A stretch of DNA of 64,000 bases, taken from assembly GCA_934119955.1 (NCBI GenBank), contig CAKOSZ010000007.1:5192-69191 (forward strand), written 5' to 3'. The position numbers and the translations under genes were made by a program. Below the pieces are notes generated by a model. That model did not search any database. It was not told the origin of the DNA and saw nothing but the letters and a program-made list of their open reading frames with translations. Of the stretch, positions 15,133 through 63,420 are shown piece after piece. Position 1 is the first letter of the stretch. Each line of letters begins with the position of its first letter. Origin of the DNA: an uncultured Bacilli bacterium. Its GTDB lineage: Bacteria; Bacillota_I; Bacilli_A; RF39; UBA660.

Positions 15133-16314
15133 ATGAAAATATTATCAGTAAATGCAGGTAGTTCATCTTTAAAGTTTCAAATGTATGAAATGCCTGATGA
15201 AGTTGTATTAATTAGTGGCGTTTTTGAACGCATTGGTATGGAAGGTAGTTTCTATACTATTAAATTAAATGGAGAAAAAAAAGAAAAAAAAGTAGAACTT
15301 AAAGATCATAAAACAGCATTTGAGTTATTAGTTAAAGAATTAATTGATAATAAGATAGTTGATAGTTTAGATGATATAGCAGGAATTGGGCATAGAATAG
15401 TTCAAGGTGGTTCATATTTTGATAGAAGTGTTATAGCAAGTGAAGAAGTTATTCAAAAAATTGATGAATTATCACCTCTTGCACCTTTACATAATCCAGC
15501 AGCAATAGTAGGTATTCGTGCTGCTCAAACAGTAGTTCCAGGTGCTGTACAAACAGTTGTTTTCGATACAGCATATCATCAAACTATGCCGGAAGAAAAT
15601 TATTTATATGCACTTCCATATGATTTATGCAAAGATAATTTAATAAGAAGATATGGGGCTCATGGGACAAGTCATAGATATGTTGCTAATAAAATGAATG
15701 AAATATTAGGAAGAGAAGATACTAAATTAATTACTTGTCATATAGGTAATGGTGCAAGTATAAGTGCAATTTTAAATGGAAAATGTTTAAATACTTCAAT
15801 GGGATTAACTCCAAATGCTGGTTTAATTATGGGAACACGTTGTGGGGATATTGATGCTACAATTTTACCTTACTTAATGGAAAAGCAAAACATTTCATGC
15901 AAGGAAATGGATAGAATTATGAACAAAGAAAGTGGATTACTTGGTATAAGTGGTGTTAGTAGTGATTCAAGAGATATTGAAAATGGAATAAAAGAAGGAA
16001 ACAAACGTTGTGAATTGGCTCAAAAAATGTATGTAAGAAGAATTATTGATTACATTGCTAAGTATTATGTTGAACTAGGTGGCTGTGATGGTATAGTATT
16101 TACTGCTGGTGTTGGTGAAAATAGTGTTTCAGTTCGTAAAGCAATTATGGAAGGTTTAGAAGTTTTAGGTATTAAATTAGATGAAGAAAAAAATAATATA
16201 AGAGGTAGTTTACAAAAAATTAGTGCTAATGATTCAAGTGTTTTAGTTTATGTAATACCAACAGATGAAGAATTAATGATAGCACGTGATACTTTAAATT
16301 TAATAAATAGTTAG
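15133..16314 (+). CDS. ackA: acetate kinase
   Basis: MKILSVNAGSSSLKFQ N-terminus, GHRIVQGG, and DTAYHQTMP motifs. 394 aa. RBS AAAGGAG. Confidence 0.9.
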   Translation: MKILSVNAGSSSLKFQMYEMPDEVVLISGVFERIGMEGSFYTIKLNGEKKEKKVELKDHKTAFELLVKELIDNKIVDSLDDIAGIGHRIVQGGSYFDRSVIASEEVIQKIDELSPLAPLHNPAAIVGIRAAQTVVPGAVQTVVFDTAYHQTMPEENYLYALPYDLCKDNLIRRYGAHGTSHRYVANKMNEILGREDTKLITCHIGNGASISAILNGKCLNTSMGLTPNAGLIMGTRCGDIDATILPYLMEKQNISCKEMDRIMNKESGLLGISGVSSDSRDIENGIKEGNKRCELAQKMYVRRIIDYIAKYYVELGGCDGIVFTAGVGENSVSVRKAIMEGLEVLGIKLDEEKNNIRGSLQKISANDSSVLVYVIPTDEELMIARDTLNLINS

Positions 16315-18407: not shown

Positions 18408-18987
18408 ATGAAAATTTGAAAAGATAAAAAAAATAATTTTTTTTTAAAAAAAAGTGTTGACATTTGTCACATATTATGGTAAATTATAATTGCTTGGTAA
18501 GATAACAAACTTGATAATAATTGTTTGACTATATAATATTTATTCATTGGAGTATTTATTATATTTATGGACTCATATTTATTCTTATAGAATATTTATT
18601 GATAGTCTTATAAGTTAATTGAGTTTAACTTATTTGTAGGCTTTATGCCTTATAGAATAATTGACTTTATTCTTTAACCTTTTTAGGTTTTTTGTATTAT
18701 TGATTTAATACTAATTTTATGAAAACAATTATTTGGTTGAGTGTTATGTTGGTATGAAAAGGTATATGGAAATATACTCATTATCGCCACCAAGTAGGAC
18801 AATTGTTTTGAGAGGAGAAAACTCAAAGATAAGTTAGTTGTAATAAACACTGATAATGTTTATTAAATATTAATATTATCTAAACAATAATATTAATTGC
18901 TACAACTATTTTCAAAACTCGCATAAATAGTTTTATCAGAACTATTTATTTTTTTTGGTTTATTAACATATACTTTACTGGTGGTAT

Positions 18988-19820: not shown

Positions 19821-21575
19821 ATGGAAGAACAATTAAAAATGTATGATGAAATATTTAGAGTAGTAGGGGAGAGTTTAGAAGAAAAACTTACTAAACTTAA
19901 TTATGAGAATTATGAAAAATTAGATTCAACAGACCTAGGCAAGGAAAAAAAGAAGAAATTTAATGAAAAAATAGAAGAATATTTTTCTATGTATAGGGAT
20001 ACAACTCGTCGTGATAGTACAGAACCAGGTTATGTTGCTTTTAAGGAAAAATTAAGCTATTTAAATAAAAAGCTAAAAGATGAAGGAAAAGATCAAATTG
20101 AAAATGCAGAGGACTTCTTCAATTTTAAAAAGAAATTAGAAGAAGAAAAAGAAAAAGAAAAACATGATACACCTAATGATGAAAGTAAGAGTGATGATGC
20201 ACCAAAACACGTGGATACTGAACCTAGTAAAAAAATGCCTGATAAAAAAGGAAAAGTAAATAGTTGGTGGGCTGAAAATATCAAGCCAACTGTAAAACGT
20301 TGGATGAAGTTTGTTGGCGGTGTTGCTGGAGTTGCACTTCTTGCTTCTAGTATTGCTGCTCCTGGGAATATACCATTATTGTTACTTTTGTCCGGTGTTG
20401 TAGAAGGAGTATTACTAGGTGTAAAAGAATTACCAACTGTTATTAAATTTGTTACGTTGCTTCCACGTAAAGGAATAGATTTTATTAAGTCGTTAAAAGA
20501 AAAGAGCAAGGAAAAACAAAAAGGAAAGAAAAAGAATAAAAAAAGAAAAAAACAAAAAAGTAATTCTAGTTCAAGAGAATCAGTTGAAGATTATGAGAAA
20601 ACATTATCTGAAGGTATGATACATGATGATGAAAAAAAAGAAAATGATATATCTGTTGACGAAAAAACAGAAGAAGATATGACCACTGCTTTAGATAATA
20701 TACCTACCGATGAAAAATCGGAAGAAGATAAAGCAGAAGAAGATATGACTACTGCTTTAGATAATATGCTTACTGATGAAAAATCAGAAGAAGATAAAGT
20801 AGATGATATATCTACTGATGATAAATCAAAAAGTGATGTAACTCCAGACTTGCCAGTTAGCAATGCAGATATCAAAGAACAAAGAGAACAAAAAATACAA
20901 AGATTAAAGAATACAAAACAACGATTAGTTGAAGCAAAGGAAAGACTAAGAAAACAAAAAGAAGAGCAAACAAAGCAAGAAAATGGTGTTCAAGATAAAA
21001 GCGATGTTGTGACTCATTCTAGTGGAACACATGAAAATATTATTGATCGACAATTAAATGCGCTTGCTGACAATCATGTAGGGTATACAGGTAATTATGA
21101 TGAAACTGATTTAGAAAAACGTATTATAGTAGAAGATGAACTGAAAAAGCTTAATGAACAAATTGCACAACTTTCAAATTCAAGAAATTATGATGGTAAT
21201 TATGACGAGACAGAAATTGAAAAACAAGCATTGATAGAGCGTAAAAATCAATTGGAAAAATTTATTATGTCTAAAAAGAGTCCTGCAATGCAAACAGCTG
21301 TAATAGATGATGTTCGTACGCAGTCACGAATTTCAAAATTACCTTCTCAAAGTGATGATGTTGAAAAGATAAATTCAAAAATAAATGAGCTTTCAAGTTT
21401 GTTAGGTAAGTCTAATTATGTTCCAGAAGCAGAAAAAAATAAAGATAAAGAATATATTGAATTGTCAAGAGAATTAGAAGAATTAAAAAAAACAAGAGAA
21501 AAAATAATACAACAAAAAAATATTGAAAGCATACAACAATCAGAAAATCAAGAAGAATTTAGTAGGAAAATGTGA
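19821..21575 (+). CDS. membrane-anchored coiled-coil protein with a lysine-rich linker and acidic tandem repeats (T4SS-associated, unknown function)
   Basis: Central TM helix (VGGVAGVALLASSIAAPGNIPLLLLLSGVV), a KKKNKKRKKQK stretch, two 22-aa EEDMTTALDN... repeats, and a long heptad-rich C-terminal region. The ORF track's start at 19743 lies upstream of the promoter, so the start is taken at 19821. Confidence 0.45.
   Translation: MEEQLKMYDEIFRVVGESLEEKLTKLNYENYEKLDSTDLGKEKKKKFNEKIEEYFSMYRDTTRRDSTEPGYVAFKEKLSYLNKKLKDEGKDQIENAEDFFNFKKKLEEEKEKEKHDTPNDESKSDDAPKHVDTEPSKKMPDKKGKVNSWWAENIKPTVKRWMKFVGGVAGVALLASSIAAPGNIPLLLLLSGVVEGVLLGVKELPTVIKFVTLLPRKGIDFIKSLKEKSKEKQKGKKKNKKRKKQKSNSSSRESVEDYEKTLSEGMIHDDEKKENDISVDEKTEEDMTTALDNIPTDEKSEEDKAEEDMTTALDNMLTDEKSEEDKVDDISTDDKSKSDVTPDLPVSNADIKEQREQKIQRLKNTKQRLVEAKERLRKQKEEQTKQENGVQDKSDVVTHSSGTHENIIDRQLNALADNHVGYTGNYDETDLEKRIIVEDELKKLNEQIAQLSNSRNYDGNYDETEIEKQALIERKNQLEKFIMSKKSPAMQTAVIDDVRTQSRISKLPSQSDDVEKINSKINELSSLLGKSNYVPEAEKNKDKEYIELSRELEELKKTREKIIQQKNIESIQQSENQEEFSRKM
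20669..20800 (+). repeat. 2 x 66-bp in-frame tandem repeat inside the coiled-coil protein gene
   Basis: GAAGAAGATATGAC(C/T)ACTGCTTTAGATAATAT...GATGAAAAATC(G/A)GAAGAAGATAAAG(C/T)A is repeated head-to-tail. Confidence 0.8.
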
Positions 21576-40463: not shown

Positions 40464-40540
<77 letters not shown>

Positions 40541-44777: not shown

Positions 44778-46226
44778 ATGGATGACTTAACTATTATAAA
44801 AAGAAAATATGGTGAAGGTATGATGCATCTTTGCCGAGAGTTATTTCCAACTATTTTAGATAAAAAAGGTGTCTTGTCTAAAATATTATTAGATAGTTTT
44901 TATCCAAGTAGAGAAATAATAAAAGATTTATTATCAAATGATTTAATATATGATTTTAGAAACTTTATTTTAAGTAAATATAATAAGTTATATAATGTAC
45001 TTCCTTCTTCCTACAAAACAAATAAAACACCTCAGGAACTTTTAGATGAGGCCGGATATATATTATATGAATGTAAAACTAATTCAGAGATTTTAAAGTT
45101 TAAAAAATATTATCAAAAGAAAGAAGAAATATGTACTTTTAAAGAAAATAGATTATTTACACATCATGTTTTCTTTGCTGTAAAAAAAAATGTTAAAGAA
45201 ATTAAAAGAGAAGATTTTTCAAATCCTAAAAGACAAGATTTATATGGAACAAGTGTTATAAGTATTCAATTCACAAAAGATGATAATCATACTTTATCAA
45301 TTAAAAATAGATACAATCATGTAGTTAATAACCCAGATGCAACATTTTCAAATAATTTAGATAATATTATTCCAGGTCTTACTTATAGTTTTTCTAAACA
45401 CTATGGTTTAAATCAATTAAATCCAACCTATAATTTTTCTATTCCAAATTATATTTTAATAAAAGATAAATATTATAAATACAATTTATCAGTTGAGGAA
45501 ACTTATTATTGTCCAGATAACATAGTGATAATTAATGGGGAAGTTAAACAACTAGAAAAAGAAAGATATTTATTTCTTGATAATTCAATTATTAATCTTG
45601 CTAAACATGAATTTATTCATTTTCAAGATGATTATTTAAAAGAACTACTTGGCAAGATAAAAAAAATAGAAATTAGACTTCTAAATGAAAAAAAGCAAGT
45701 TTATATTGTAAATGAAAAACAAGAAGAAACATTTATAACCTTAAATTCTAATAATGAAATAATTGCTTTAAAAAATAATTATGTTAAAGAACTACCTAAT
45801 GATTTTTTATATTATAATAAAAATTTAGAAGTATTAGAACTATTAAATGTTGAAAGAATTGGTAATAATTTCTTGTACCATAACAATGCTTTAAAACATT
45901 TAAGTATACCAAAGGTAAAAAGTATAGGTAATAACTTTTTATATAATAATACTTGTTTGGAAAGTATAGATTTAGAATTTGTTAATAAAATAGGTCACAA
46001 TTTTATTTGGTTAAATAAAATATTAAATGATGTTAGTTTACCTAATTTAGTTCAAGTAGGAGATAATTTTTTATATAGTAATACAAGTCTTAGAACTTTA
46101 AATTTACCTAATTTATTAAAATTTGGTTCTTGTTTTATGATTTCAAATACCGATTTAGAAAATGTTAATATTCCAAAACTTGGGTTTAATTTTCTTAGTA
46201 AAAGTAAAGTATTTAAAAAGTGGTGA
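44778..46226 (+). CDS. BspA-type leucine-rich-repeat protein
   Basis: The C-terminal half has 7 or more ~23-aa repeats of the form ...IGNNFLY.N..L..L.LP.L... (NNFLYHNNALKHLSIPKV / IGNNFLYNNTCLESIDLEFV / GDNFLYSNTSLRTLNLPNL). Confidence 0.6.
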   Translation: MDDLTIIKRKYGEGMMHLCRELFPTILDKKGVLSKILLDSFYPSREIIKDLLSNDLIYDFRNFILSKYNKLYNVLPSSYKTNKTPQELLDEAGYILYECKTNSEILKFKKYYQKKEEICTFKENRLFTHHVFFAVKKNVKEIKREDFSNPKRQDLYGTSVISIQFTKDDNHTLSIKNRYNHVVNNPDATFSNNLDNIIPGLTYSFSKHYGLNQLNPTYNFSIPNYILIKDKYYKYNLSVEETYYCPDNIVIINGEVKQLEKERYLFLDNSIINLAKHEFIHFQDDYLKELLGKIKKIEIRLLNEKKQVYIVNEKQEETFITLNSNNEIIALKNNYVKELPNDFLYYNKNLEVLELLNVERIGNNFLYHNNALKHLSIPKVKSIGNNFLYNNTCLESIDLEFVNKIGHNFIWLNKILNDVSLPNLVQVGDNFLYSNTSLRTLNLPNLLKFGSCFMISNTDLENVNIPKLGFNFLSKSKVFKKW

Positions 46227-49655: not shown

Positions 49656-52256
49656 GTGTTTATGTTAAAAAAAATATTAAGTTTATTAGTAGTGTTTTTT
49701 AGTTTTTTAGTAATTAATGTTAAGGCTGAAATTTATGATTTAAATAGTATTCCAAATAGATCTTATGTTATAGGAAAACATTTATATACAAGAGATTCCT
49801 TAGATGGAAATGCTTTTAATGGAGAATATCAGGGAGTACTTGAAACTAGGTGGTTAATATTTGGTTCTTCTTCTATTGAAAGTACTAATCTTTTAGATAT
49901 GATAGTTTATTATAAAAATCCAGAAGGAGTTTTTCTAGATGCAGCCAATGATTTAGTAATAGATGAAAATAAGTTACCAAAATATTTTGAAATAGAATAT
50001 TTAAATGGTAATAAAATAGAAAATAGTTTTAAAACAAGTATTGTACCTAATAAATTAACAGAAAACAATTATTTATCTCTTGCAACAAAAAGTGTTAATA
50101 TAGAAAAATATGCTGGTTATGATGTTTTTAAAAATTATATTGAAGATGATAATACTATTAATCGTGGTAATAGTAAATTAACTTTTAAAGTTGCAAAAGA
50201 CTTTATTGGTGATAAAGATAATTACTATGATATTACAATTAAATATTTTGATGCAGGACTTGGGACAATTCTTTTACAAGTATCAAATGACTATGATAAT
50301 ACAATTAATTATAGTAAAACTGGCTATGGTGGTTATGTAGAGGAGCCTTGGTGGACTTGGGGAAATGGATATTATTTTAAAAATATGAGTATATGTTTAA
50401 CTAATACTAATACTTGGAAAACTTATACTTTTAGAGTAACTGATACTTTTTTTGAAAAGAATATTGATAATTATCTTCATTTCTATTTTGGAACTAATAA
50501 TAAAAATACAAGTGGAGAAGTTATAAATATTAGAGAAGTAATAGTTACTAAAAAAGTTACTAAAATTTTATCTATTGATAAAAATACTAATAATAATGAA
50601 GCGGTTGTTGGTAATATATATACAGATAGTGATTTTGGTTTAGGATTTAAAGTTTTAAATATTTATGATGAGAATAAAACTTTTAATATTTCTTATAAAA
50701 TACTAGATGATGATGAAAAAACAGTAAGTGAAAAAAATCTTGGTCTTGTAACTATTCCTGCTAATAATCAGGAAATGTTTTACTTAGATAATTCTTTAAA
50801 ATATGGTGTATATAAATTAATTGTATCTGTTAATTATAATGGTATTGTTGAAAATGAGAAAATAGAATTTAGTAAAATGATAAAAGATTTAAGTAATCAA
50901 AAAAATGATTTTTTAGGTGTTTCTAGTCTTTTTGGTTATAGCACGTATTTTCCTGATTCAATTATTCGTGATACAAAAAATGTTTATCAAAAATTAGGAG
51001 TAAGCATAATTAGAAATGGAATAAATGGAAATTTTGTTGCTTCAAATAATAATACCTTAGCAAGTTACATTCCTTTATATGATATTTTAACAAATGAAGA
51101 GGAAGATATGCTTATGAATGTTTGGAATATTGACTCAAATGTTGAAGTTACAAGTGATGGTATTATTACAGATAGTAGTTTTGAAAAATTAAAAACAAGA
51201 ACAATTGAACTTTATAAAATGCTTGCTAATAAATATAAGGGTAAAATAAAATATTATGAAACTTTATGCGAATGGAATAGATTTAGTCCTAAAAATGCTA
51301 TTACTCCTGAACAATATGCTATACTTGTAATAGAAATTAGTAAAGCAGTTAAATCAATTGATAAAAATGCTAAGATAGTTGCTATGAATACAAATAAATT
51401 TCCTATTTATGATGATGCTTATTATGAAGATTATAATCTAGAACATGTAAATGATTATACAAATTATTTAGAAAATTCATGGTTAGTAAGAGCCTTAAAG
51501 ACTAGCATTGATATAGATTTTGACGGGGATGGAACAGTAGAAACTGTAAATGTCTGTGATGTAATAGATGCAATATCAATTCATCCTTATACTATGTCAG
51601 CCACTACTTCCCCAGAAACTAAAATCTCATTAATGAGTTTAACAAAAGAATTAAGAAAATTAATTCAGGATCATACTGATAAAAATATTCCTATCTGGTT
51701 TACTGAATTAGGTCATCCAACTCATGCTTTTGGAGCATCTTTAAAACTACAAGCCGCATTTCTTACAAGAACACTTGTTCTAAGTCAAGCAATGAACGAG
51801 ACAACAAACGTAGAAAAAGCAATTATTTATGAATTACAAAATCAAGGAGCATCTAATTTAAATAGTGAAGCAAATTATGGATTAGTAAATAATTTTAAAG
51901 ATAATAGTTCAAAACCATTTACAAGAGATATTAGTATGTCGGCTAAAAATAGTTATATTGCCATAAATATGTATAGTTATATTTTAAATAATGCTAAATA
52001 TCTTGCTAGTAACGAAAATACCTATGAAACTGATAATTATTTATGGTATAAATTTAAAACAAATGACAATAAAGAAGTAATTGTTACTTGGATAGATGAA
52101 AAAGAAAATATAAGTAAAAATATTAATTTAAATGTTAATATGGGAAAAATAACAATTTATGATATTTATGGAAATACCTTAAATTCATTTGTTAATAATA
52201 AAAATACTATTAATGTTGATGTTAGTTATGAACCAATTTATATTGTTACTACATAA
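49656..52256 (+). CDS. large secreted protein with a C-terminal clan GH-A-like (TIM-barrel glycoside hydrolase) domain
   Basis: Signal peptide. The N-terminal ~450 aa look like beta-rich accessory domains. The C-terminal region has a nucleophile-like motif (WFTELGHPTH) and a possible acid/base motif (CEWNRF). Weak. Confidence 0.4.
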   Translation: MFMLKKILSLLVVFFSFLVINVKAEIYDLNSIPNRSYVIGKHLYTRDSLDGNAFNGEYQGVLETRWLIFGSSSIESTNLLDMIVYYKNPEGVFLDAANDLVIDENKLPKYFEIEYLNGNKIENSFKTSIVPNKLTENNYLSLATKSVNIEKYAGYDVFKNYIEDDNTINRGNSKLTFKVAKDFIGDKDNYYDITIKYFDAGLGTILLQVSNDYDNTINYSKTGYGGYVEEPWWTWGNGYYFKNMSICLTNTNTWKTYTFRVTDTFFEKNIDNYLHFYFGTNNKNTSGEVINIREVIVTKKVTKILSIDKNTNNNEAVVGNIYTDSDFGLGFKVLNIYDENKTFNISYKILDDDEKTVSEKNLGLVTIPANNQEMFYLDNSLKYGVYKLIVSVNYNGIVENEKIEFSKMIKDLSNQKNDFLGVSSLFGYSTYFPDSIIRDTKNVYQKLGVSIIRNGINGNFVASNNNTLASYIPLYDILTNEEEDMLMNVWNIDSNVEVTSDGIITDSSFEKLKTRTIELYKMLANKYKGKIKYYETLCEWNRFSPKNAITPEQYAILVIEISKAVKSIDKNAKIVAMNTNKFPIYDDAYYEDYNLEHVNDYTNYLENSWLVRALKTSIDIDFDGDGTVETVNVCDVIDAISIHPYTMSATTSPETKISLMSLTKELRKLIQDHTDKNIPIWFTELGHPTHAFGASLKLQAAFLTRTLVLSQAMNETTNVEKAIIYELQNQGASNLNSEANYGLVNNFKDNSSKPFTRDISMSAKNSYIAINMYSYILNNAKYLASNENTYETDNYLWYKFKTNDNKEVIVTWIDEKENISKNINLNVNMGKITIYDIYGNTLNSFVNNKNTINVDVSYEPIYIVTT

Positions 52257-53375: not shown

Positions 53376-54035
53376 ATGAAAAGATTAAAGATAATATTAA
53401 TGATAGTTCTATTTTTTATAACTACAAATGTTTTTGCAATAGACAATTGTACAAATGATGAAATGAAAAGATTAAGAGAACTTGCTAATAATGTAAAAAT
53501 TAATTATGAATATACTGTTGATGATGAAATTATAGAAGAAGAAACAGTATATGTTCATTATAATATTAAAGTAATAAATTTAAGTGATGATTTAAAAATA
53601 TATTATAATGGAGAAGATAATAATTTAAGATTATATTCAAAAGAAGAAATAGAAAATATGGAGTTTTCATCAGGAACAACTCATAAATTTTATTTGTATT
53701 CTTATACTAATAATTTATGTACTGATGAATTAATAAAAACAATTTCAGTTAAATTCCCAGTTGTAAATTCTTATTATTACTTTAATAAAGAAAAGTGTTT
53801 GAACAATCAAGATTTTAAATATTGTAAAGAATTTTCTAATGAAGAAAATTATAGTTTTGAAGAAATTGATAAAATGTTTGATGATTATTTAAATAAGGGT
53901 AATTCAAATAATGGTAATCAAATTAATAAATATTTAACTAAATATATTTATTATATTATAGGAATAATAATTTTGATTTTAGTTATAGTGATTGTAATAA
54001 TTAAAGTCAAAAAAAATAAAAAAGAAGATATTTAG
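53376..54035 (+). CDS. Cys-rich secreted protein with a C-terminal TM anchor (module copy 1, small subunit)
   Basis: Signal peptide MKRLKIILMIVLFFITTNVFA, conserved Cys (CTN...LCT...KC...YC), C-terminal helix IIGIIILILVIVIVII and a KNKKEDI tail. Paralogue at 56544. Confidence 0.5.
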   Translation: MKRLKIILMIVLFFITTNVFAIDNCTNDEMKRLRELANNVKINYEYTVDDEIIEEETVYVHYNIKVINLSDDLKIYYNGEDNNLRLYSKEEIENMEFSSGTTHKFYLYSYTNNLCTDELIKTISVKFPVVNSYYYFNKEKCLNNQDFKYCKEFSNEENYSFEEIDKMFDDYLNKGNSNNGNQINKYLTKYIYYIIGIIILILVIVIVIIKVKKNKKEDI

Positions 54036-54043: not shown

Positions 54044-56470
54044 ATGAAAAAAGTATATAAAGTATTATTATTAACTTTGCTATTTTTTATATTTTCTCTT
54101 AATGGAAATGCTGATGAAGTAACTAATAAAAAAGGTGATTTAAGGTGTAATCCAGAAAATAAAACTTCTTGTGAGGAGATAAAAAATAGTAATGGAGAAG
54201 TTATTCAAGTAAATGTAGCAACTGATGTTATTAAAAATGATGGTGATATTCAAGTTATTAAACATGTAAAAAAAACTAATATACTAGGTGAATTAGAAAT
54301 ATGGTTTACTATAAAAGGAAAAAATATTGAAATTATTCAATCAGGTAAAGATGCATATGTCATTGTAGTTTTTGATACATCTTCAACTATGAAAAGTGGT
54401 TCTCAACTAGAAAGTGCTAAATCTGCTATTAAAACATTTAGCAAAGTGTTATATTCGAATAAACCAGAAGGAGTTAATTATTATTTAGCTGCTATTCAAT
54501 TCGCTGAATATTCAAAAATTATTAGAAATTTTGCAAATAAAGATTTTAGTGATATGAGTTTTTCTAGTAGAAGTAGTTTAGGTTCAAAATCTGAATTAGG
54601 TTATGCCTACCATGATGTATATAACTTATTAGCAAAAGTTCCTGTTGAAGATAAAAAATATGTAGTTTTATTTGGCGATGGAAGATATTATAATGGATAT
54701 AATTGTTCAGTTTATTCCCATAAAGGTAAAAATAATAAATATGATACTCACTGTGATGTTTTAGATGCAAATTATGCTAAAATTCGAGATAGTTATAAAG
54801 AATATATTAGTATTTATGGTATTCTTTATAGTGGTGGTAGTTTACATAATGTATTAGATAATAAAATAAATAAGAAAAAGACTGTTTGTTATGATAAATA
54901 TCGTGGCGATTGTGATAAAATGTTTATGCAAAAGTATACAGATACTTATCTTGATGCAAGAGAATGTAATAGTAAATATAGTAGTTGTAAAAAAGATCCG
55001 AATTACGAAGATTACTTTAAAGAAATTGCTAAAATAATTAATTCTGATAAAACTTATCCTGTAAATATATCGGCTAGTTTAGAAGATAGAATAGGTTCTT
55101 CATTTGATATTATAGGTTCTAGTGATAAAAGTAAAAAAATTACAATTAAAAATATAACTGAAAATGGAGTAGAAACAGAACACTTTAAAATAAAAATAAA
55201 TGATAATGCTCTTGATGGTTGGAATGATACTAACAATGGTTTTAATTTAACTTATGATAAAAAAGTAATAAGTAATAATAATAATCCTCAAATGTATTGG
55301 AAAGAAATGATTTGCACAGATAGTATAACTGATGAAAAAGAAAAAGTAATTAAATCATGTAGTGGTACAGAAAGTATAGATTTAGAAATAAAATCAAATT
55401 GTCAAAGTGAAAAGAAAATATATTATGATATATCATGTGATGAAAAAATAACTGCTGGTATTAAAATAAATAATTTAAAAGATGGGGTTAAGAAATTTAG
55501 TATAGATAAAGGTTTAGGTTTTCCTGCTAATTTAAACTTAAAAACTGATTTAGAATGTAATTACGTATTTTATAAAGGTTTATATGATAATGATTATAAT
55601 AAGTTAACTCTTGAAATTTCTAAGGAAACTGATGAGAAAATAATTCATAGTAAAACTAAAAAACTTAATGAAATGAAATCATATTTAGAAACTTATAATA
55701 GTTATTTAAATAATTTAAATGATTATAAAACTAATGTATTCTCAAATCAAGCAGCAACTTTAAAAGTTAAAGTTTTAGATAATTCCTATGATTATCAAGA
55801 TTTCATTAATTCAAAATTTAAAATAAATGAAGATAATTGTAAGGATACAGAAAACTATCAAGATGGATTTAAAGTTACAACGAAAACTTGTTCTTTAAAG
55901 ATGGAAAAAGATATGATTTTGACTGAAAAATGCTTGAATATGAAAGATGGAAGTGTTGAAAACTGTACTAATTCGAATAAACAAATAAAAGGAGGAAATA
56001 AATATTATACAAGCATAAATAAAAATTCAGGAAGTGTCTTTGTAGAAATTAATTCACTTGGATATGCCTCAGTTGTAAATAATAAATCTAATATAAGTAT
56101 TAAATTAGAAGACTGTGAATATGAAACAGGTAAATTATATAAAGATAAAATATCATTTAGACAAATAGAATTATCTGATCCTTTCTTAAAATCTTATACT
56201 AATTCAAAAAGAGAAATAGGTAAGAATTATCTAAATACCAAATATGACTTTGTAAGTATTATAAAACCAGATATTTGGTCTTTATCTACTAGTGACTATA
56301 AATTTTCATTAAGTAAAATAAATGTAAGTAATATAAGGCATGATACAAATAATTTAGGCATTTCATCTTATCTTGGAAGTGATTGTTATATTAGTAATAC
56401 TAATAAATATGTTTGTAAATTCTTTGAGGATAGTGAAAAAAACAATTTCTTTACAAATACATCAAAATAA
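54044..56470 (+). CDS. large secreted Cys-rich VWA-domain protein (module copy 1)
   Basis: Signal peptide, N-terminal conserved block KKGDLRCNPENKTSCEEIKNSNGEVIQ...IQVIKHVKKT, a VWA MIDAS-like motif (YVIVVFDTSSTMK), more than 20 Cys and no C-terminal anchor. Paralogue at 57200. Confidence 0.55.
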   Translation: MKKVYKVLLLTLLFFIFSLNGNADEVTNKKGDLRCNPENKTSCEEIKNSNGEVIQVNVATDVIKNDGDIQVIKHVKKTNILGELEIWFTIKGKNIEIIQSGKDAYVIVVFDTSSTMKSGSQLESAKSAIKTFSKVLYSNKPEGVNYYLAAIQFAEYSKIIRNFANKDFSDMSFSSRSSLGSKSELGYAYHDVYNLLAKVPVEDKKYVVLFGDGRYYNGYNCSVYSHKGKNNKYDTHCDVLDANYAKIRDSYKEYISIYGILYSGGSLHNVLDNKINKKKTVCYDKYRGDCDKMFMQKYTDTYLDARECNSKYSSCKKDPNYEDYFKEIAKIINSDKTYPVNISASLEDRIGSSFDIIGSSDKSKKITIKNITENGVETEHFKIKINDNALDGWNDTNNGFNLTYDKKVISNNNNPQMYWKEMICTDSITDEKEKVIKSCSGTESIDLEIKSNCQSEKKIYYDISCDEKITAGIKINNLKDGVKKFSIDKGLGFPANLNLKTDLECNYVFYKGLYDNDYNKLTLEISKETDEKIIHSKTKKLNEMKSYLETYNSYLNNLNDYKTNVFSNQAATLKVKVLDNSYDYQDFINSKFKINEDNCKDTENYQDGFKVTTKTCSLKMEKDMILTEKCLNMKDGSVENCTNSNKQIKGGNKYYTSINKNSGSVFVEINSLGYASVVNNKSNISIKLEDCEYETGKLYKDKISFRQIELSDPFLKSYTNSKREIGKNYLNTKYDFVSIIKPDIWSLSTSDYKFSLSKINVSNIRHDTNNLGISSYLGSDCYISNTNKYVCKFFEDSEKNNFFTNTSK

Positions 56471-56543
56471 AAAAAATAAAGGAGTTTAATTGCTCTTTTA
56501 TTTTTTCTATGCTATAATTTTTCTAGATATAATAAGGAGCAAT

Positions 56544-57191
56544 ATGAAGTATAAAAGTATTTTATTGATTGGTTTATTTTTTATAACCACAAATGTTTTT
56601 GCAATTAATGATTGTACAAATTCTGAGATGAAAAGATTAAATGAACTTGCTAATAATGTTAAAATAACTTATGATTATGTTATTGATGAAGAAATAGAAA
56701 AAAGAACAATAGCAGGATTTTTTTATGTACAAATTAATAATTTAAGTGATGATTTACAAATATATCTTAAAGATATGTCAGGTAATTTAAAATTATATTC
56801 AAAGGATGAAATAGAAGAAAATGATTTTAATTTTAATACAACAGAAAAATTTTATATTTATTCATATACTGATAATTTATGTACTAATAAATTAATAAAA
56901 ACAATTACAATTAAATTTCCAAGTGTAAATCCTTATTACTATTACAATAAAGAAAAATGTATAGAACATACTGATTTTAAATATTGTCAAGAATTTTTAA
57001 ATCATGATTTAGATCTTGATGAAATAGATGAGATGTATAATGAATACATAAATAAAAATAATATTAATGATCAAAAAACAAAAACATTTAATAAAAATTA
57101 TATATATATAATAACTGCAAGTTTTTTAATAATATGTATAATTATATTTATTGTAATTAAAATAAGAAAAAATAAAAAAGAAGATATTTAG
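56544..57191 (+). CDS. Cys-rich secreted protein with a C-terminal TM anchor (module copy 2, small subunit)
   Basis: Paralogue of 53376-54035 with the same Cys spacing, the same C-terminal anchor and the same KNKKEDI tail. RBS AAGGAG before the ATG at 56544. Confidence 0.5.
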   Translation: MKYKSILLIGLFFITTNVFAINDCTNSEMKRLNELANNVKITYDYVIDEEIEKRTIAGFFYVQINNLSDDLQIYLKDMSGNLKLYSKDEIEENDFNFNTTEKFYIYSYTDNLCTNKLIKTITIKFPSVNPYYYYNKEKCIEHTDFKYCQEFLNHDLDLDEIDEMYNEYINKNNINDQKTKTFNKNYIYIITASFLIICIIIFIVIKIRKNKKEDI

Positions 57192-57199
57192 AGGTTAGT

Positions 57200-59620
57200 A
57201 TGAAAAAGATATTTACATTAGTAATATTGTTATTAATTATAGTTCCTTATTCAGTTGGTGCTAGTAAAAAAGGTGATTTAAGATGTAATCCTGATAATAA
57301 AACTTCATGTAAAGAAATAAAAAACTCTAATGGAGAAGTAATTCAAACAGATGTAACAAGTGGAAGTTTAGATAAAGAAGGCGATATTCAAATTATCAAA
57401 CATGTTAAAAAAACTGAAACAATTGGAGAATTTAAGGTGTGGTTTACAATTAAAGGAAAAGGAATAAAGTCTCAAAACAAGTATAAAAAAACTAAGATTG
57501 TTTTAATATTAGATATGTCACATACAGTAGAAGATTCTATTAGGGAAATAACATCAGCAACTAAAAAATTTTATAATTCCTTTAAAGATATTGATGAAAT
57601 ACAAATTTCTATTATCCAGTTTGCTACTAATGCCAAAAAAATTAATATAAATAATGGAAATTTTGAATTATGTGGATATAATGATACAAAAAGTGGATGT
57701 AAATTAAAAACAAAGTCTCATGTTGAAAAAGCCTTGAAAATTGCTAATAATGAATTAAGTGGTGAAGATCAAAAATATATTGTTCTTTTAGGAGATGGGC
57801 AATATTGGTCAGAAAATGACACAGAAACAGATGATGCGGTTAATTGGTTTAAAAATTTAAACAACAATGGAGTTAAATTTTTTATGATTCAATATGAGGG
57901 GGGAGAAAGTGAATATTCTGAAATGAGAAAATGCGCCAAAGGTTCAAAGGCAAGTAAAAGGCGTTTTGATTTAGGTTGTAAAAGTGGTTATTCTAATAAA
58001 AATCCAGTTCAATATAATGGTGCCTACATATCTACATATATAAAGCCTGTAAAATGGTGGTGTAAATATGATATAGGAAGCGGTTCTTTTCGTGATAGAT
58101 ATTGGTGCACTAATAATAGTGTAATAAATAGTTATGAAGAAGTTTTCAATAGTGTAGTTAATGAAATTAAAGAAAATGTTAAAAATGATAATGCTGTTGA
58201 TGCAACATTAAGCGATAGATTAGGTGAAGAATTTACTATTTTGGATACTACTTTAAAAGAAAAAAATATGAAGATAGATAAAATAACTGAAAGTGGTATA
58301 GATACACCTGCGTTTAATGTTGTAATTGATTCTATGGCTGAATCTGATAAATGGCATGACACTAACAATGGTTTTACTTTATCATTGCCAAATGACAATA
58401 ACATTGGTTGTAACGATAATCCCGAAGTATATTGGATTCAAACTAAATTAAGTTGTGAAAATGCAATTAATGAACCAGTTGTTAATGAAATTAAGGGTTG
58501 TAGTGGCCAATCTCCATCAATCAATAATACAATAACTACTAATTGTGGGGCTAATGATTTACATTATACAATTACGTGTTTAGAAGGATATCAAGATAAT
58601 GGAAAAGACATACCAGGTTATACTGCTAATATAAATATAAATAATATAACAAAAAATGAAAATAAATTTAATATAAAATCTGGTCTTGGCTTTCCAATAA
58701 ATATTTCTTTAAATACAAATATTTATTGTAAATATGAATTTAATGAAACTAATTTTAACAAAGATTATCAATATGTTTTAAATAGTATAAATATTACGAA
58801 GGATTCTAAAAAAAGATATAGTTTAGAACAACTTAAAATTAATTTAGAAAATGAATTAATTTCTTATCAAGAAAAATTAAAAAATTTAGAAGATTATCAG
58901 AATAGATTTAATGAACAAACAGCAACTTTAAAAGTTAATTATAATGAAAAAATAACTGATATTCAACAATTTAAAAATAAAAGCGTGAGTGATAGTGAAA
59001 TTAAATGTGTAACTACTAAAAAAAGTACTGTAAATTCCCAAGAAATTGAATCAAAAGAGTGTTATTTATCAATGAATAAGAAAATGGAATTAGAAAGTGT
59101 TTGCCTAGATATAAAAACAGGAAAAGTTGAAAAATGTACTTCATCTAATACACAGTTGTCAGGAGGAAATAAGTATTATACTAGTTTAACTGAAAAAGAG
59201 GGCTCAGTTTTTGTAAATATTTCTGATGCAGGATATGATAATAATTTAACAATTAATTTAACGGGGTGTACTACATCAAGTGACAAAACAGGTTTTAATG
59301 TAGTACTTAGACAAATAGAATTATCTGATCCTTTCTTAAAATCTTATACTAATTCAAAAAGAGAAATAGGTAAGAATTATCTAAATACCAAATATGACTT
59401 TGTAAGTATTATAAAACCAGATATTTGGTCTTTATCTACTGGTGACTATAAATTTTCATTAAGTAAAATAAATGTAAGTAATATAAGGCATGATACAGAT
59501 AATTTAGGTGTTTCATCTTATCTTGGAAGTGATTGTTATATTAATAATTTGAATAAATATGTTTGCAATTTCTTTGAGGATAGTGAAAAAAACAATTTCT
59601 TTACAAATATAGAAAAATAA
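57200..59620 (+). CDS. large secreted Cys-rich VWA-domain protein (module copy 2)
   Basis: Paralogue of 54044-56470. N-terminal KKGDLRCNPDNKTSCKEIKNSNGEVIQ, MIDAS-like IVLILDMSHTVED, and a C-terminal ~105 aa almost identical to copy 1. Confidence 0.55.
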   Translation: MKKIFTLVILLLIIVPYSVGASKKGDLRCNPDNKTSCKEIKNSNGEVIQTDVTSGSLDKEGDIQIIKHVKKTETIGEFKVWFTIKGKGIKSQNKYKKTKIVLILDMSHTVEDSIREITSATKKFYNSFKDIDEIQISIIQFATNAKKININNGNFELCGYNDTKSGCKLKTKSHVEKALKIANNELSGEDQKYIVLLGDGQYWSENDTETDDAVNWFKNLNNNGVKFFMIQYEGGESEYSEMRKCAKGSKASKRRFDLGCKSGYSNKNPVQYNGAYISTYIKPVKWWCKYDIGSGSFRDRYWCTNNSVINSYEEVFNSVVNEIKENVKNDNAVDATLSDRLGEEFTILDTTLKEKNMKIDKITESGIDTPAFNVVIDSMAESDKWHDTNNGFTLSLPNDNNIGCNDNPEVYWIQTKLSCENAINEPVVNEIKGCSGQSPSINNTITTNCGANDLHYTITCLEGYQDNGKDIPGYTANININNITKNENKFNIKSGLGFPINISLNTNIYCKYEFNETNFNKDYQYVLNSINITKDSKKRYSLEQLKINLENELISYQEKLKNLEDYQNRFNEQTATLKVNYNEKITDIQQFKNKSVSDSEIKCVTTKKSTVNSQEIESKECYLSMNKKMELESVCLDIKTGKVEKCTSSNTQLSGGNKYYTSLTEKEGSVFVNISDAGYDNNLTINLTGCTTSSDKTGFNVVLRQIELSDPFLKSYTNSKREIGKNYLNTKYDFVSIIKPDIWSLSTGDYKFSLSKINVSNIRHDTDNLGVSSYLGSDCYINNLNKYVCNFFEDSEKNNFFTNIEK

Positions 59621-59681: not shown

Positions 59682-60239
59682 GTGGCTTTGAAATCAGCGA
59701 TGTGGATGGTGTTTATTTTTGTTCTTGGAGTTATTGGAATAGTTTTAATTAATGTTTTTGGTAATATTACAACAACTAATCAACAAGATTATACTTTAAT
59801 TAAAAATACAGTTGAAGCAGCAATGTATGATTCAATTGATGTAGCATCATATCGATCAGGTTTTTATCTTTGTACTAATGCCTCAGCAAGTGATAAAATA
59901 ACTTTTACTTCTAAAAATGATTATGCAATTCTTTTAAATAATGATATTACTCAAAGTAATTTAGACAATTATAAAAAATGTGATTTTTTAGTAGGAGAAG
60001 TTAAGTTAAAAGCCGATGTATTTGCTGAAAGTTTTTTAAGAAGATTTTCAAGTGATGTGAACAATAACAAAAGTTATCAAATAACTATTCAAGAAGTAAT
60101 AGAATATCCACCTAAGGTAAGTGTTAGAATTGACACATATAATTCATATAATAATAAAATTGAAACTTCACAAGAGTTTCAAACAGGGGATTTTAAAATT
60201 CGTAATCAAATAGATGCAATATTTGAAGAAAAAAATTAG
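59682..60239 (+). CDS. N-terminally membrane-anchored protein (possible TadE/TadG-class pilus accessory protein)
   Basis: Single N-terminal TM (WMVFIFVLGVIGIVLINVFG) with the rest extracytoplasmic. It is the first gene of the Tad-like operon. No G/xxxxE prepilin motif. The start is ambiguous among GTG 59682, TTG 59688 and ATG 59700. Confidence 0.3.
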   Translation: MALKSAMWMVFIFVLGVIGIVLINVFGNITTTNQQDYTLIKNTVEAAMYDSIDVASYRSGFYLCTNASASDKITFTSKNDYAILLNNDITQSNLDNYKKCDFLVGEVKLKADVFAESFLRRFSSDVNNNKSYQITIQEVIEYPPKVSVRIDTYNSYNNKIETSQEFQTGDFKIRNQIDAIFEEKN

Positions 60240-60257
60240 AAATAAAAAGGAGAGTTT

Positions 60258-61052
60258 ATGAAAAAATTAAAACAAATTTTATCAAACAAAAATACAGTTA
60301 CATTTATAGCAGCCATATTAATTGTGCTAGTTCTATATATATTCTATAATTGGAGAGTTAGTCAAGCAACTAGTCCAATTCGTATACCTTATGCTAATCA
60401 AACCATTAATCCAAGAACAAAGATTACAAATGAAATGATATCATACTTAGAAATGCCATCAACTGCTGTTAAAGGTAATGTTGTAACAAATGCTAATAAT
60501 ATTGTTGGAATGTACACTAATGTAAACGGAGTAATTCCAGCAGGAAGTTTATTTTATAGTAGTCAAATAGTAAGACAAGAAGAACTACCAGACTCATTTC
60601 TTTTAAATATTCAAGATGGATATATTCCTTATAACTTTGATGTTAATATGAAATCAACTTATGGTAATTCAATTTATCCAGGTAATTATGTTGATGTTTA
60701 TTTTAAAGGAGTTCAAAATGGTAAATTAATGATTGGTAAACTTCTTGAAAATGTTAAAGTATTATCAGTTAAAGATGCAAGTGGTCGTCCTGTATTTGAA
60801 ACAAGTGACAATGATAGAGTACCTAGTCAAATTATATTTGCTGTAACACCTGAAATACATTTATTACTTAGAAAAGCAGAGTATTTAAGTGCTGTTAAAA
60901 TAATTATTGTACCTAATAATACATCTTTAAAACTTGAAGATGGTGAAGAAGATGTAGCAGTTACTGTTAAAAGCGAAACAATTAAAAACTTTATTGAAGA
61001 ACAATCAGTATACGTTGATGAAACTGAATCAATTGATGATACTAATAATTAG
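60258..61052 (+). CDS. cpaB: Flp-pilus assembly protein CpaB/RcpC-like (SAF-domain)
   Basis: N-terminal TM (VTFIAAILIVLVLYIF), then a SAF-like segment (IPYANQTINPRTKITNEMISYLEMP). Size and position match CpaB immediately upstream of the CpaF ATPase. Confidence 0.5.
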   Translation: MKKLKQILSNKNTVTFIAAILIVLVLYIFYNWRVSQATSPIRIPYANQTINPRTKITNEMISYLEMPSTAVKGNVVTNANNIVGMYTNVNGVIPAGSLFYSSQIVRQEELPDSFLLNIQDGYIPYNFDVNMKSTYGNSIYPGNYVDVYFKGVQNGKLMIGKLLENVKVLSVKDASGRPVFETSDNDRVPSQIIFAVTPEIHLLLRKAEYLSAVKIIIVPNNTSLKLEDGEEDVAVTVKSETIKNFIEEQSVYVDETESIDDTNN

Positions 61053-61060
61053 AGGTTACA

Positions 61061-62512
61061 ATGAATCAAGGTATAAATGCATATGATTTAACTTCAAATA
61101 ATCAAGAAAAAACTAATACCGAGATAAATGCTGATTTATTTTCTAGTATTGACTTTGGTCCTTTAAAACCATTTTTAGATGATGATAATATAACTGATAT
61201 TTCATATAGTAATAATGGTCAAGTATGGTTAAAATCACTTGATAGAGGAGTTTACCGAGTAGAAAATACTGGAATTAATAACGAATTAATAGAAAAAATT
61301 GCTTTTCAGTGTGCTAATATCATGGGTAAAACGTTTAACATGGCAAGTCCTCTTTTAGATAGTGAATCAACTGAACTTCGTATGAATTTTATCCACGATT
61401 CAATTGCTAGAAATGGAATTGCTGCTGTGTTTAGAAAAACACCAGCCAAGATTAGATTGAAGAAAGAAAAAATAATAAGTGATAAATACATAACCTTAGG
61501 AATACATGACTTTTTAATCGAATGTGTTCATGGTCATTGTAATATAATTGTATCCGGTGAAACTGGATCTGGTAAAACTGAGCTTGTTAAATACTTAGCA
61601 AGCCATACTAAGGAAAATGAAAAAATTATAACTATTGAAGATACTTTGGAACTACACTTAGATGTAATATTTCCACATCGAGATATTGTTGCTATGAAAA
61701 CTAATAATATTGCTTCATATAGTGACGTTTTAATAGGATGTATGAGGCAAAACCCTAAATGGATATTATTATCAGAAGTAAGATCCGCAGAAGCAGTTAC
61801 AGCAGTTCGTAACTCTATCTCATCAGGACACAATATTTTGTCAACAATTCATGCTGATAAAGCATCAAGTATTCCGTATCGTTTGTATAGTTTGCTTGAA
61901 AGCAACATTGATGTTGAACAATTTATGACAACTATTTATAGATATATTCAATTAGGTGTTCATGTAAGAGCAAGATATGATAAAGTAACAGGTAAATTTA
62001 TGAGAGAAGTTTGTGAAGTATGCGAATTTCATGTAAATAAAGATAATAAACCAGAGAGTAATATAATATATAGAAAAAATATTGATGGAACGGAAATACT
62101 TAATTCTCCAAGTCCATATCTAATAGATTATTTAGAAGGACAAGGAATTGATTTAGCAAATAAAAACTTTGATAATTTAAAAATAGATTTACCATTTAAT
62201 AATCAAGTTGATACTACTAGTCAAGGTTCAAATAATACAAGTGTTAATACTAATATTAATACTACTAATGTTAATCAAAATATGAATAATACTTTAACTA
62301 ATAATGTAACTAATACGGTTAGTAATGATGTAGTTAATAATACAAATAATACAGTTAATAATCATAATATTAATAATAATGTTAATAATTCGACTGATAC
62401 ATTACTAGTTGATGAACCAACTTTAAGTACTCAAAGTAATGTAGCAACTAATGTGGTAAATCAAAATAATATAAATAATAATCCAATAATTGATAATGAT
62501 GAAATTTTATAG
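61061..62512 (+). CDS. tadA: CpaF/TadA-family type IV pilus (Tad) secretion ATPase with an Asn/Thr-rich C-terminal extension
   Basis: Walker A VSGETGSGKTEL, Walker B/Asp box ILLSEVRSAEA, and His box GHNILSTIHA. The last ~110 aa are low-complexity N/T/V. Confidence 0.8.
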   Translation: MNQGINAYDLTSNNQEKTNTEINADLFSSIDFGPLKPFLDDDNITDISYSNNGQVWLKSLDRGVYRVENTGINNELIEKIAFQCANIMGKTFNMASPLLDSESTELRMNFIHDSIARNGIAAVFRKTPAKIRLKKEKIISDKYITLGIHDFLIECVHGHCNIIVSGETGSGKTELVKYLASHTKENEKIITIEDTLELHLDVIFPHRDIVAMKTNNIASYSDVLIGCMRQNPKWILLSEVRSAEAVTAVRNSISSGHNILSTIHADKASSIPYRLYSLLESNIDVEQFMTTIYRYIQLGVHVRARYDKVTGKFMREVCEVCEFHVNKDNKPESNIIYRKNIDGTEILNSPSPYLIDYLEGQGIDLANKNFDNLKIDLPFNNQVDTTSQGSNNTSVNTNINTTNVNQNMNNTLTNNVTNTVSNDVVNNTNNTVNNHNINNNVNNSTDTLLVDEPTLSTQSNVATNVVNQNNINNNPIIDNDEIL

Positions 62513-62523
62513 GGAGGTGTGAG

Positions 62524-63420
62524 ATGGAATTTATAATAATACTTTTTATTGTATTCTTTGTTGTTTTATATCGAAAAAGCAATGGTGAATCTTTGTATAA
62601 ATTTGTAACAACTAGTATAGGTAATGTCTATGATAAATATGCTCCCTATTCATTTAAAAATATAAGAGAAAGATGTAAAGAAATGGGACTTGAATATACT
62701 AAAAAACAGTATACTGTTCAAGTAATAGTATTTACTTTAATTGCCTTTATTATATCTTATTTATATTTTTATAATGTAGTAGTTGCTTTCTTTTATGTTG
62801 TGTTAGTAGATGCTTTTATACCATATCTTGCATATTTAAGGTGTAAAAGATTATATAGTGAATTTATTTTTGAACAAGTTCAAGTATATGTAACAAATAC
62901 AATAATGGAATTTCAAACAACTCAAAGTTTTGTTAAAGCCTTAGAAGGTGTATATGAGTCAGGTGTATTAGAAGAACCACTAAAAACAGATGTAAAAGTT
63001 ATGATTGATCTTGCTTATCATAATGGTGATGTAGGTGAATCAATTGATTATATGAATAGTAAGTATGACTTTTATATGACAAGAAATATGCATCAATTAT
63101 TCTTGCAAGTTACAAGAGAAGGTGCACATGATACAGTTGAAGTATTAGATAATATGCTTTTAGATGTTGACCAATTAGTAGAAGGTGTTTATCAAGATAG
63201 AATGAATAGAAGTGCCTTTCATCAAGCATTTATTAGATATGGATTACTATTATATTTAATGGTAATGCTTGTACAATGGTTGATTGGGAAAGAAACCTAT
63301 ATCGAAATGGTAAACTCGAACATAATTCTTCAAATAGGACTTCATATTGTAATACTATTTAATAGTTATTTCCTATTATCAGGAGAAAAATATTATAATG
63401 AGAATGTGGGGGCTGAATAA
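62524..63420 (+). CDS. tadB: TadB-like inner-membrane platform protein (T2SS-F domain)
   Basis: Polytopic, with a GspF-like cytoplasmic domain between TM helices. Translationally coupled (TAATG) to the next gene. Confidence 0.5.
   Translation: MEFIIILFIVFFVVLYRKSNGESLYKFVTTSIGNVYDKYAPYSFKNIRERCKEMGLEYTKKQYTVQVIVFTLIAFIISYLYFYNVVVAFFYVVLVDAFIPYLAYLRCKRLYSEFIFEQVQVYVTNTIMEFQTTQSFVKALEGVYESGVLEEPLKTDVKVMIDLAYHNGDVGESIDYMNSKYDFYMTRNMHQLFLQVTREGAHDTVEVLDNMLLDVDQLVEGVYQDRMNRSAFHQAFIRYGLLLYLMVMLVQWLIGKETYIEMVNSNIILQIGLHIVILFNSYFLLSGEKYYNENVGAE

Follow-up and report, generated by a model that had tools for sequence, protein, structure and literature searches.

The window analysed here, meaning the whole stretch of 64,000 nucleotides (nt), comes from an uncultured Bacilli bacterium (assembly GCA_934119955.1, contig CAKOSZ010000007.1, positions 5,192 to 69,191). 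It contains two tandem two-gene pairs on the plus strand, each consisting of a gene for a small membrane-anchored protein and a gene for a secreted protein of about 800 amino acids (aa). These pairs are referred to as cassettes A and B, and the positions that they occupy as slots 1 and 2. The two big genes end in nearly identical sequence, and this common 3' block is the subject of the present analysis. Very probably, the tandem cassettes recombine through it, by short-tract conversion as well as by crossovers of whole cassettes, with a tail that would serve for docking and a head that would act as an adhesin. The locus is AT-rich, with about 23% GC, and the organism is a gut bacterium. The cassette features are as follows.

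53376 to 54035, plus strand: small gene of cassette A, in slot 1 (219 aa; open reading frame and translation).
54044 to 56470, plus strand: big gene A (808 aa; open reading frame, Pfam scan, AlphaFold2 and Foldseek).
56157 to 56470, plus strand: first copy of the 3' homology block, the tail of A (ungapped comparison and repeat search).
56471 to 56543, plus strand: spacer between slots 1 and 2, with a ribosome-binding site ahead of the small gene of cassette B.
56544 to 57191, plus strand: small gene of cassette B (215 aa from the ATG at 56544).
57200 to 59620, plus strand: big gene B (806 aa; architecture as in big gene A).
59307 to 59620, plus strand: second copy of the 3' homology block, the tail of B (its last 115 nt or so are of slot-2 type, as in the related contig L004 and in slot 2 of contig L001).

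For the small gene of cassette B, the mechanical open reading frame begins at a TTG at 56490, and the 215-aa call is the one made in the related contigs L005, L014 and L015.

The comparison of 56156-56470 with 59306-59620, at a fixed offset of 3150 nt, gave 14 mismatches in 315 nt (95.6% identity) and no gaps. A sequence-only reading of this DNA had reported the same coordinates, an ungapped alignment and about 14 mismatches, all of which proved exact on re-measurement, and the C-terminal peptide that it quoted is correct by translation. In a repeat search of the whole window, this pair was the longest repeat (56146-56445 and 59296-59595, 95%). The longest perfect run spans 134 nt (56157-56290, equal to 59307-59440), which is far beyond chance, since shuffled versions of A and B share exact runs of at most 12-15 nt. 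All 14 mismatches lie 3' of this run, and every synonymous one lies 3' of the breakpoint mapped below. The differences at 56291 and 56348 (59441 and 59498 in copy B) are the sole two in about the first 200 nt of the block; they are nonsynonymous, S/G and N/D, and the B variants at these two sites were found in cassette B alone among all sampled tails.

Immediately upstream of the block, ungapped identity at the 3150-nt offset is 34%, while the gene bodies of A and B are 53% identical in nucleotides and 34% in amino acids when aligned by codons. The earlier description of the remainder as background therefore holds directly upstream of the block, but not throughout the cassettes, because an N-terminal patch and the small genes are also conserved. 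In the big genes, aa ~30-60 share 80% of their residues, with a proportion of synonymous differences (pS) of 0.39, and parts of the small genes are 81-87% identical in nucleotides.

Homologues of these genes are rare. A word-indexed search returned 16 matches, an exhaustive search about 60 full-length representatives of clusters at 50%, and a third search no additional full-length members. All of them are unnamed and come from gut or rumen-type metagenomes and metagenome-assembled genomes (MAGs). The exact A protein is present on 15 contigs, and no database record was found for the exact B protein. In the metagenome collection of the Joint Genome Institute (JGI), an exact 33-nt tail pattern gave 0 matches, and a protein-pattern scan returned distant species only.

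Contigs of the same species, which sample five cassette types in about six independent assemblies, all metagenomic, share a fixed upstream flank (an RsgA-like GTPase, a secreted protein of 864-866 aa, ribosome recycling factor and a lipoprotein) and a fixed downstream flank of DUF5411, CpaB and TadA-like genes. The cassettes in between vary.

L001: slot 1 holds cassette C (755 aa); slot 2 holds A, 94% identical in amino acids to A of the window.
L002 and L003: slot 1 holds C; slot 2 holds A' (770 aa).
L004: slot 1 lies outside the contig coverage; slot 2 holds A'' (815 aa).
L005, L014 and L015: both slots are as in the window, at 99.8-100% nucleotide identity.

Cassette A is thus found in slot 1 in the window and in slot 2 in L001. 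The same-species genes all end in the 3' block, which is common to all five sampled cassette types at a nucleotide identity of at least 86%, and their tails differ pairwise at 0-46 of 318 nt. When B is aligned to any other cassette, the alignment begins at 59296-59307. For this reason, the sharp boundary at 56157/59307, which the sequence-only reading took as a signature of conversion, is better described as the edge of a species-wide homology block than as the footprint of a single event. The comparison of alleles across strains (L001-L005), suggested there as a check, revealed shared flanks, differing cassettes and mosaic tails.

The arrangement itself is reproduced independently. Contigs L014 and L015, from different samples and different studies, carry the lipoprotein gene, small A, big A, the spacer, small B and big B at 99.8-100% identity and differ from the window only in scaffold Ns. 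In L005, which covers cassette B together with the end of A and the operon, identity is 99.9%. Contigs tend to break near the repeat edges: L014 ends at window position 59282, L005 starts at 56331, and L004 starts 34 nt before its big gene. Such stops at the block edges are an ordinary effect of a genuine repeat on short-read assemblers.

Recombination boundaries could be placed at four positions within the cassettes.

53403 to 53520, plus strand: 5' recombination junction of cassette A (60-nt window identities and blastn segments).
55241 to 55300, plus strand: head/stalk boundary, at about aa 416 (nucleotide identity of the A, A' and A'' alleles).
56353 to 56394, plus strand: breakpoint interval in the tail of A (maximum chi-square triplet test, permutation p <= 0.0002).
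About 59488 to 59509, plus strand: breakpoint in the tail of B (maximum chi-square, p <= 0.0006).

Within nt 0-200 of the tail, A of the window shows 3 differences from B and 13 from its own allele in slot 2 of L001, the bodies of these two A genes being 96% identical in nucleotides. Accordingly, between these two alleles pS is higher in the tail (0.25) than in the body (0.13). Over codons 722-746, A and B agree completely (100%), and the identity of A to the three other A-family alleles is 88%, against 96-97% in the flanking windows. Farther downstream, nt 200-315 of the tail of A have 2 mismatches with slot 1 of L002 and 11 with B. The spacer after the stop codon also matches the slot-1 type; this spacer is slot-specific, and its first 40 nt, the part compared (56471-56510), are 98% identical to the corresponding spacer of L001. 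The tail of B is of slot-2 type over nt 200-315, with 0-1 mismatch to slot-2 genes at nt 200-260. In the four-gamete test, all four gametes were carried by 296 of 1225 informative site pairs.

At the other end of cassette A, slot-1-type sequence (95-98% identical to slot 1 of L001) covers the upstream spacer and reaches ~100 nt into the slot-1 small gene, and from about 53463 on the sequence is of cassette-A type (95-100% identical to slot 2 of L001). From junctions of this kind in the two conserved blocks it follows that cassette A has changed slot. A further discontinuity lies inside the big gene. Downstream of the head/stalk boundary A, A' and A'' are 91-100% identical in nucleotides, and upstream of it 35-70% (also L002 8959-10316 and L004 1118-2485). 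Judging from these alleles, heads are apparently swapped at about aa 416, which would constitute a third recombination boundary. In the exhaustive protein search, profile positions ~406-412 likewise split head-only from stalk-and-tail-only relatives.

Homologous exchange in the 3' block, cassette content and slots that vary with the strain, and breakpoints in conserved blocks are all established. The mechanism proposed to unite them has two components. Short-tract non-reciprocal exchange, i.e., gene conversion, would even out the 3' block between the two slots of one genome, and in the window lineage A and B would have become identical in this way over the first 134-200 nt of their blocks. The converted tract would extend from the 5' homology edge (56157/59307) to about 56350-56390, with a length of at least 134 and at most about 200-240 nt. 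Additionally, crossovers in the 3' block and in another conserved block, located at the small gene's 5' end, would move or replace whole cassettes. Such exchange of whole cassettes would be the reason why C+A, C+A' or A+B is found between identical flanks in different strains. Probably A was the recipient, and the donor was B or else an allele outside the sample, since the tail of A in the window departs from other A-family tails exactly where it equals B. In effect, the recent segmental conversion suggested by the sequence-only reading is upheld as DNA exchange, while its form is repeated short-tract exchange together with cassette shuffling rather than one conversion.

Crossover could also be invoked in place of conversion, as unequal crossing-over in a longer array (e.g., C-A-B) or as the import of a foreign cassette. 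This is a process of the same class, and it overlaps with the mechanism just described. The change of slot by cassette A and the breakpoints in both conserved blocks agree with crossover, and the slot-1 small gene is a hybrid of slot-1 and A sequence, as expected of a deletion junction. However, a single event of this kind leaves unexplained the derived variants that are common to both window tails and absent from the other sampled alleles. Sequence must still have been copied at least once, either from slot to slot or into both slots from one donor outside the sample. As a full account of the locus, crossover without conversion is thus unlikely.

The sequence-only reading had weighed conversion against a second possibility, that the tail is bound to a common partner and too constrained to change, so that purifying selection alone keeps the two ends alike with no DNA exchange. 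Synonymous sites separate these two accounts. In codon alignments with Nei-Gojobori counts, where the tail comprises 92 codons (sliding windows were also computed), the tails of A and B have a pS of 0.05 (2.5 of 52 synonymous sites) and a proportion of nonsynonymous differences (pN) of 0.03. The bodies have a pS of 0.50, which is saturated, and a pN of 0.46; the contrast in pS between tail and body is highly significant (Fisher p = 6.5e-12). Synonymous sites are therefore homogenised too, which favours conversion over selection acting alone.

Controls for selection without exchange were available in three further species (MAG contigs L007, L010 and L011, GC 24-26%) in which the [small + big] x2 tandem arrangement also occurs. 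Their tandem paralogues have a tail pS of 0.43-0.50 against a body pS of 0.44-0.52, and a tail pN of 0.25-0.28 against a body pN of 0.42-0.51, with tails 68-72% identical in nucleotides and 54-60% in amino acids. Since tails in the control species keep a pS as high as that of the body, selection alone gives only about 70% nucleotide identity. The N-terminal patch of A and B (aa ~31-60) provides an internal control and displays the selection-only pattern, being 80% identical in amino acids yet having a pS of 0.39. The family as a whole leads to the same calibration: in between-species pairs with a body amino acid identity of 0.32-0.43, tail identity is 0.39-0.65, and in within-species cassette pairs at equal body identity it is 0.81-0.96. 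By codon comparison, synonymous homogenisation is evidently limited to the species of the window.

Constraint is nevertheless real. Among the domains of the family, the tail is conserved best, and in the other species its pN is about half of that of the body. Purifying selection accounts for roughly 55-60% amino acid and 70% nucleotide identity in the tail, and DNA exchange for the remainder; the constraint alternative contains this much truth, but selection cannot explain 96% identity, and as the sole cause it is very improbable. Two further candidates were rejected. A recent duplication with fast divergence of the bodies under positive selection does not agree with a saturated body pS (0.50), which indicates that the bodies are old. 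Codon or AT bias does not explain the synonymous identity either, given that comparator species of the same GC content have a saturated tail pS.

Conservation that takes in synonymous sites might also reflect a functional element, at the DNA or RNA level, within the 3' part of the coding sequence, such as a promoter, a regulatory RNA or a site-specific recombination site, and each block does precede the next transcription unit. No Rfam match was obtained across the locus, though, and scans counted 56 promoter-like sites against 68 expected from shuffles and 0 terminator-like sites, such scans being uninformative in AT-rich DNA. Moreover, other species lack nucleotide-level conservation of the block between paralogues, and the mosaic haplotypes point to exchange rather than constraint, which makes an element of this kind highly improbable. 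An assembly artefact, i.e., a collapsed or chimeric repeat in a mixed-strain metagenome assembly, named in the sequence-only reading as a possible undoing of the observation, is scarcely credible even though every related contig is of metagenomic origin and several of them stop at repeat edges, because the two copies have distinct flanks and 14 differences, L014, L015 and L005 reproduce the arrangement, and the A protein recurs on the 15 contigs mentioned above.

The architecture of the encoded proteins indicates which parts are exchanged. Big gene A encodes, in order, a Sec-type signal peptide, a KGDLRCP patch, a VWA-type head (aa ~104-335), a beta-rich stalk (aa ~416-700) and the tail (aa ~705-808). 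The stalk includes a long helical hairpin (aa 511-566) among its beta-rich domains. The small proteins have a Sec-type signal peptide, conserved cysteines in the ectodomain and a C-terminal membrane anchor. A homologue of the small gene always adjoins the big gene in related loci, and the small gene of cassette A matched no Pfam family above cut-off.

The label VWA, given to both big genes by the sequence-only reading, is weak by Pfam for the window itself: A reaches 23.1 bits for VWA_2, below the 27-bit cut-off, and B has no match. It gains from the homologues, as cassette C and several others are above the cut-off for PF00092, and from the predicted fold. In an AlphaFold2 model of A built on a 14-sequence alignment, the body has predicted local distance difference test (pLDDT) values of 80-90, and aa 104-335 form alternating strands and helices. 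A MIDAS-type motif is present as D111-x-S113-x-T in A and D105-x-S-x-T in B, with D111, S113 and D212 invariant in the family. The best Foldseek matches of A in the PDB are the VWA pilus tip adhesins SpaC, PitA, Mfa5, RrgA and GBS104 (E 1e-14 to 3e-9), with low TM-scores of about 0.2 because the head region alone superposes. On the basis of this model, we infer that the variable VWA-type head would be an adhesin.

Several signatures of known pilus-associated proteins were looked for in A and B. There is no LPXTG-type sorting signal, in that the motif [LIV]Px[TSA][GNDA] occurs in neither protein, and the C-termini read ...NNFFTNTSK and ...NNFFTNIEK. No prepilin-type N-terminus is present, the signal peptides being of Sec type, and there is no TadE-like Pfam match. 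Likewise, Pfam detected no PilC/PilY1 C-terminal beta-propeller in the C-terminal half, which is modelled as beta-sandwich and helical-hairpin elements.

Conservation in the family is highest in the tail, of about 105 aa. In an alignment of 12 sequences from several species, 17 of about 111 tail columns are invariant: R706, I708, D712, P713, F714, R723, G726, N728, F736, I740, W745, Y752, K758, I764, G778, C781 and C791. Residue F803 is near-invariant and belongs to an alternating hydrophobic last strand, N-[FWY]-F-[TS]-x-h-x-h. The tail is also the sole large part that AlphaFold leaves unfolded, though the body reaches 80-90 from the same shallow alignment. In the word-indexed search, the tail profile retrieved three short fragments only. 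By analogy with known tip proteins, the tail, with its cysteine pair and its last strand, may be a common docking module on a single-copy partner in the pilus machinery. The AlphaFold2 failure fits a partner-dependent fold and does not prove it. An invariant tail would dock each cassette product in a PilC/PilY1-like manner, so that shuffling would alter binding specificity and leave assembly intact.

A number of points weigh against the explanation by recombining cassettes with a docking tail. The sample is small, with its five cassette types and about six independent assemblies, all from metagenomes. From sequence alone, gene conversion is indistinguishable from crossover, reciprocal or unequal, and from recombination with imported DNA, and donor and direction are unproven, as cassette B is known from the window lineage alone. 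For the tail, AlphaFold2 pLDDT is below 50 at residues 700-808 of the full model and averages 41 for the tail alone (17 sequences); the tail has no Pfam or NCBIfam match, and its profile reached at best E 0.38 against PDB sequences. The big proteins have no pilin-type signal peptide. Finally, paralogous tails of other species are at about 55-60% amino acid identity. Since those tails have drifted that far, identity of the tails is not required for function, and homogenisation is probably a by-product of homology and may be neutral.

A stronger version of the proposal would make the locus a dedicated adhesin-variation system of a Tad-like pilus, with two conserved recombination handles for passing two-gene cassettes between slots and strains, a tail that would be a new type of docking domain folding only on its single-copy partner, and heads swapped at about aa 416 to reach different targets, e.g., mucus. 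A partner-dependent tail fold would account for the success of AlphaFold on the body and its failure on the best-conserved part, and mucus is given as the example because some head-only relatives bear MucBP domains. As a whole, this version is doubtful.

The genes that follow cassette B place the cassettes next to a pilus-like system.

59682 to 63420, plus strand: start of a Tad-like pilus operon (Pfam and NCBIfam).
59682 to 60239, plus strand: DUF5411 protein (Pfam).
60258 to 61052, plus strand: CpaB/RcpC (RcpC 34.7 bits against a cut-off of 28.8).
61061 to 62512, plus strand: TadA/VirB11-type ATPase (T2SSE 94.6 bits).
62524 to 63420, plus strand: TadB-like membrane protein (polytopic).

The ATPase scores about 100 bits against each of the NCBIfam models TadA, VirB11 and TrbB, in each case below the cut-off of the model, and its subtype is not separated by score. 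It has an Asn/Thr-rich low-complexity C-terminal extension, and its length is 477, 483 or 484 aa depending on the strain. The 298- and 261-aa membrane proteins gave no Pfam match above cut-off. Past the 3' end of the window, L001 encodes at 15070-15255 a 61-aa Flp-like pilin candidate (MKEASGELSMTLIVIIAAGVILAIF...) with a short leader ending in G (MKEASG/ELSMTLIVIIAAG...), for which there was no Pfam match. Downstream of it lie three small proteins with two transmembrane segments and weak T4SS_pilin matches. No prepilin peptidase was seen in the 18-kb loci.

In every locus, across species, for which the fetched DNA extends far enough, the cassette module immediately precedes the DUF5411/CpaB/TadA genes, and in some loci of other species similarity is recognisable in the stalk-and-tail half only. 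As this half persists upstream of the DUF5411 gene across species, stalk and tail appear to be tied to the pilus-like system, with the head being replaceable.

Other features of the window were recorded in passing. The protein at 49656-52256, in the upstream flank, has 866 aa, a signal peptide and no Pfam family, and it occupies the same position in related strains. Upstream of its gene, 44778-46226 encodes a 482-aa protein with leucine-rich-repeat-like 'NNFLY.N..L' units. A local GC peak at 6789-8200 is due to a cluster of 12 tRNA genes; other tRNAs lie at 11421-11491 (minus strand), 14925-15014 and 40464-40537, and a PGK RNA motif lies at 18772-18863. A tandem pair of 66-nt copies with 82% identity is found at 20644-20775.

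One classic way in which pathogens vary their adhesins and antigens is to recombine paralogous genes for surface proteins through conserved ends. Here, the same process is encountered in an uncultured, very AT-rich lineage of the human and animal gut, and in a protein family that is still nameless, without a solved structure and, for its conserved half, without a Pfam model. The comparison yields a domain map with a head that can be swapped, a stalk, and a tail that does not vary, the tail being the candidate part for attachment to a Tad-like machine. There is also a practical consequence: because short-read assemblies break at repeat edges, strain-level cassette content will be under-reported in MAGs, and contigs will often be truncated at such sites. 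The cassette system and the unexplained tail domain are of somewhat greater interest than the conversion itself.

Among known systems, the closest analogies in function are the 'Tip' complexes of Tad pili and PilC/PilY1. The Kil system of Myxococcus has interchangeable 'Tip' sets of minor pilins (TadE/F/G) encoded with the Tad machine, for which a role as pilus caps that present variable domains on a conserved base has been proposed (PMC12075869). The cassettes with their docking tail would be a parallel to such tips. Unlike those complexes, which have prepilin-type N-termini, the window proteins have ordinary Sec signal peptides and no TadE-like match, and recombination between tips is not the subject of that paper. 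The sortase-dependent tip adhesins SpaC, RrgA, GBS104 and PitA resemble the head of A in structure according to Foldseek. In contrast to them, A and B have no LPXTG-type signal or C-terminal anchor, and they adjoin a Tad-like rather than a sortase operon.

The other functional likeness is to the tip adhesins of type IVa pili, of which Neisseria has two paralogues (pilC1/pilC2) and Pseudomonas PilY1, a protein with an N-terminal VWA domain. As in PilC/PilY1, the window proteins are large, Sec-secreted non-pilins with a conserved C-terminus. In PilC/PilY1, attachment to the pilus tip is through the C-terminal end, where a 12-residue plug binds the minor pilin PilK by beta-strand augmentation (bioRxiv 10.64898/2026.09.18.752573; PMC9210963). 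The window proteins differ in lacking the Pfam PilC/PilY1 C-terminal domain and in their association with a Tad-like instead of a type IVa pilus. Purely from this likeness, we infer that the tail might dock in the PilC/PilY1 fashion.

The closest parallel for the recombination is provided by the babA, babB and babC genes of Helicobacter pylori, in which intragenomic recombination or gene conversion makes chimeras and moves alleles between fixed loci, with the allele content of the loci varying by strain (PMC4552749; PMC3444412). Bab proteins differ from the window cassettes in being outer-membrane proteins encoded at dispersed loci of a Gram-negative pathogen, with phase variation by CT repeats. 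The window has tandem two-gene cassettes beside a pilus operon, with no sequence relationship to bab found and no simple-repeat switch seen. What the two systems have in common is paralogous adhesin or adhesin-like genes with conserved 5' and 3' regions, a variable middle and strain-dependent occupancy of the loci. The process is thus of a known kind, unsurprising as a mechanism, and operates here in an uncharacterised protein family.

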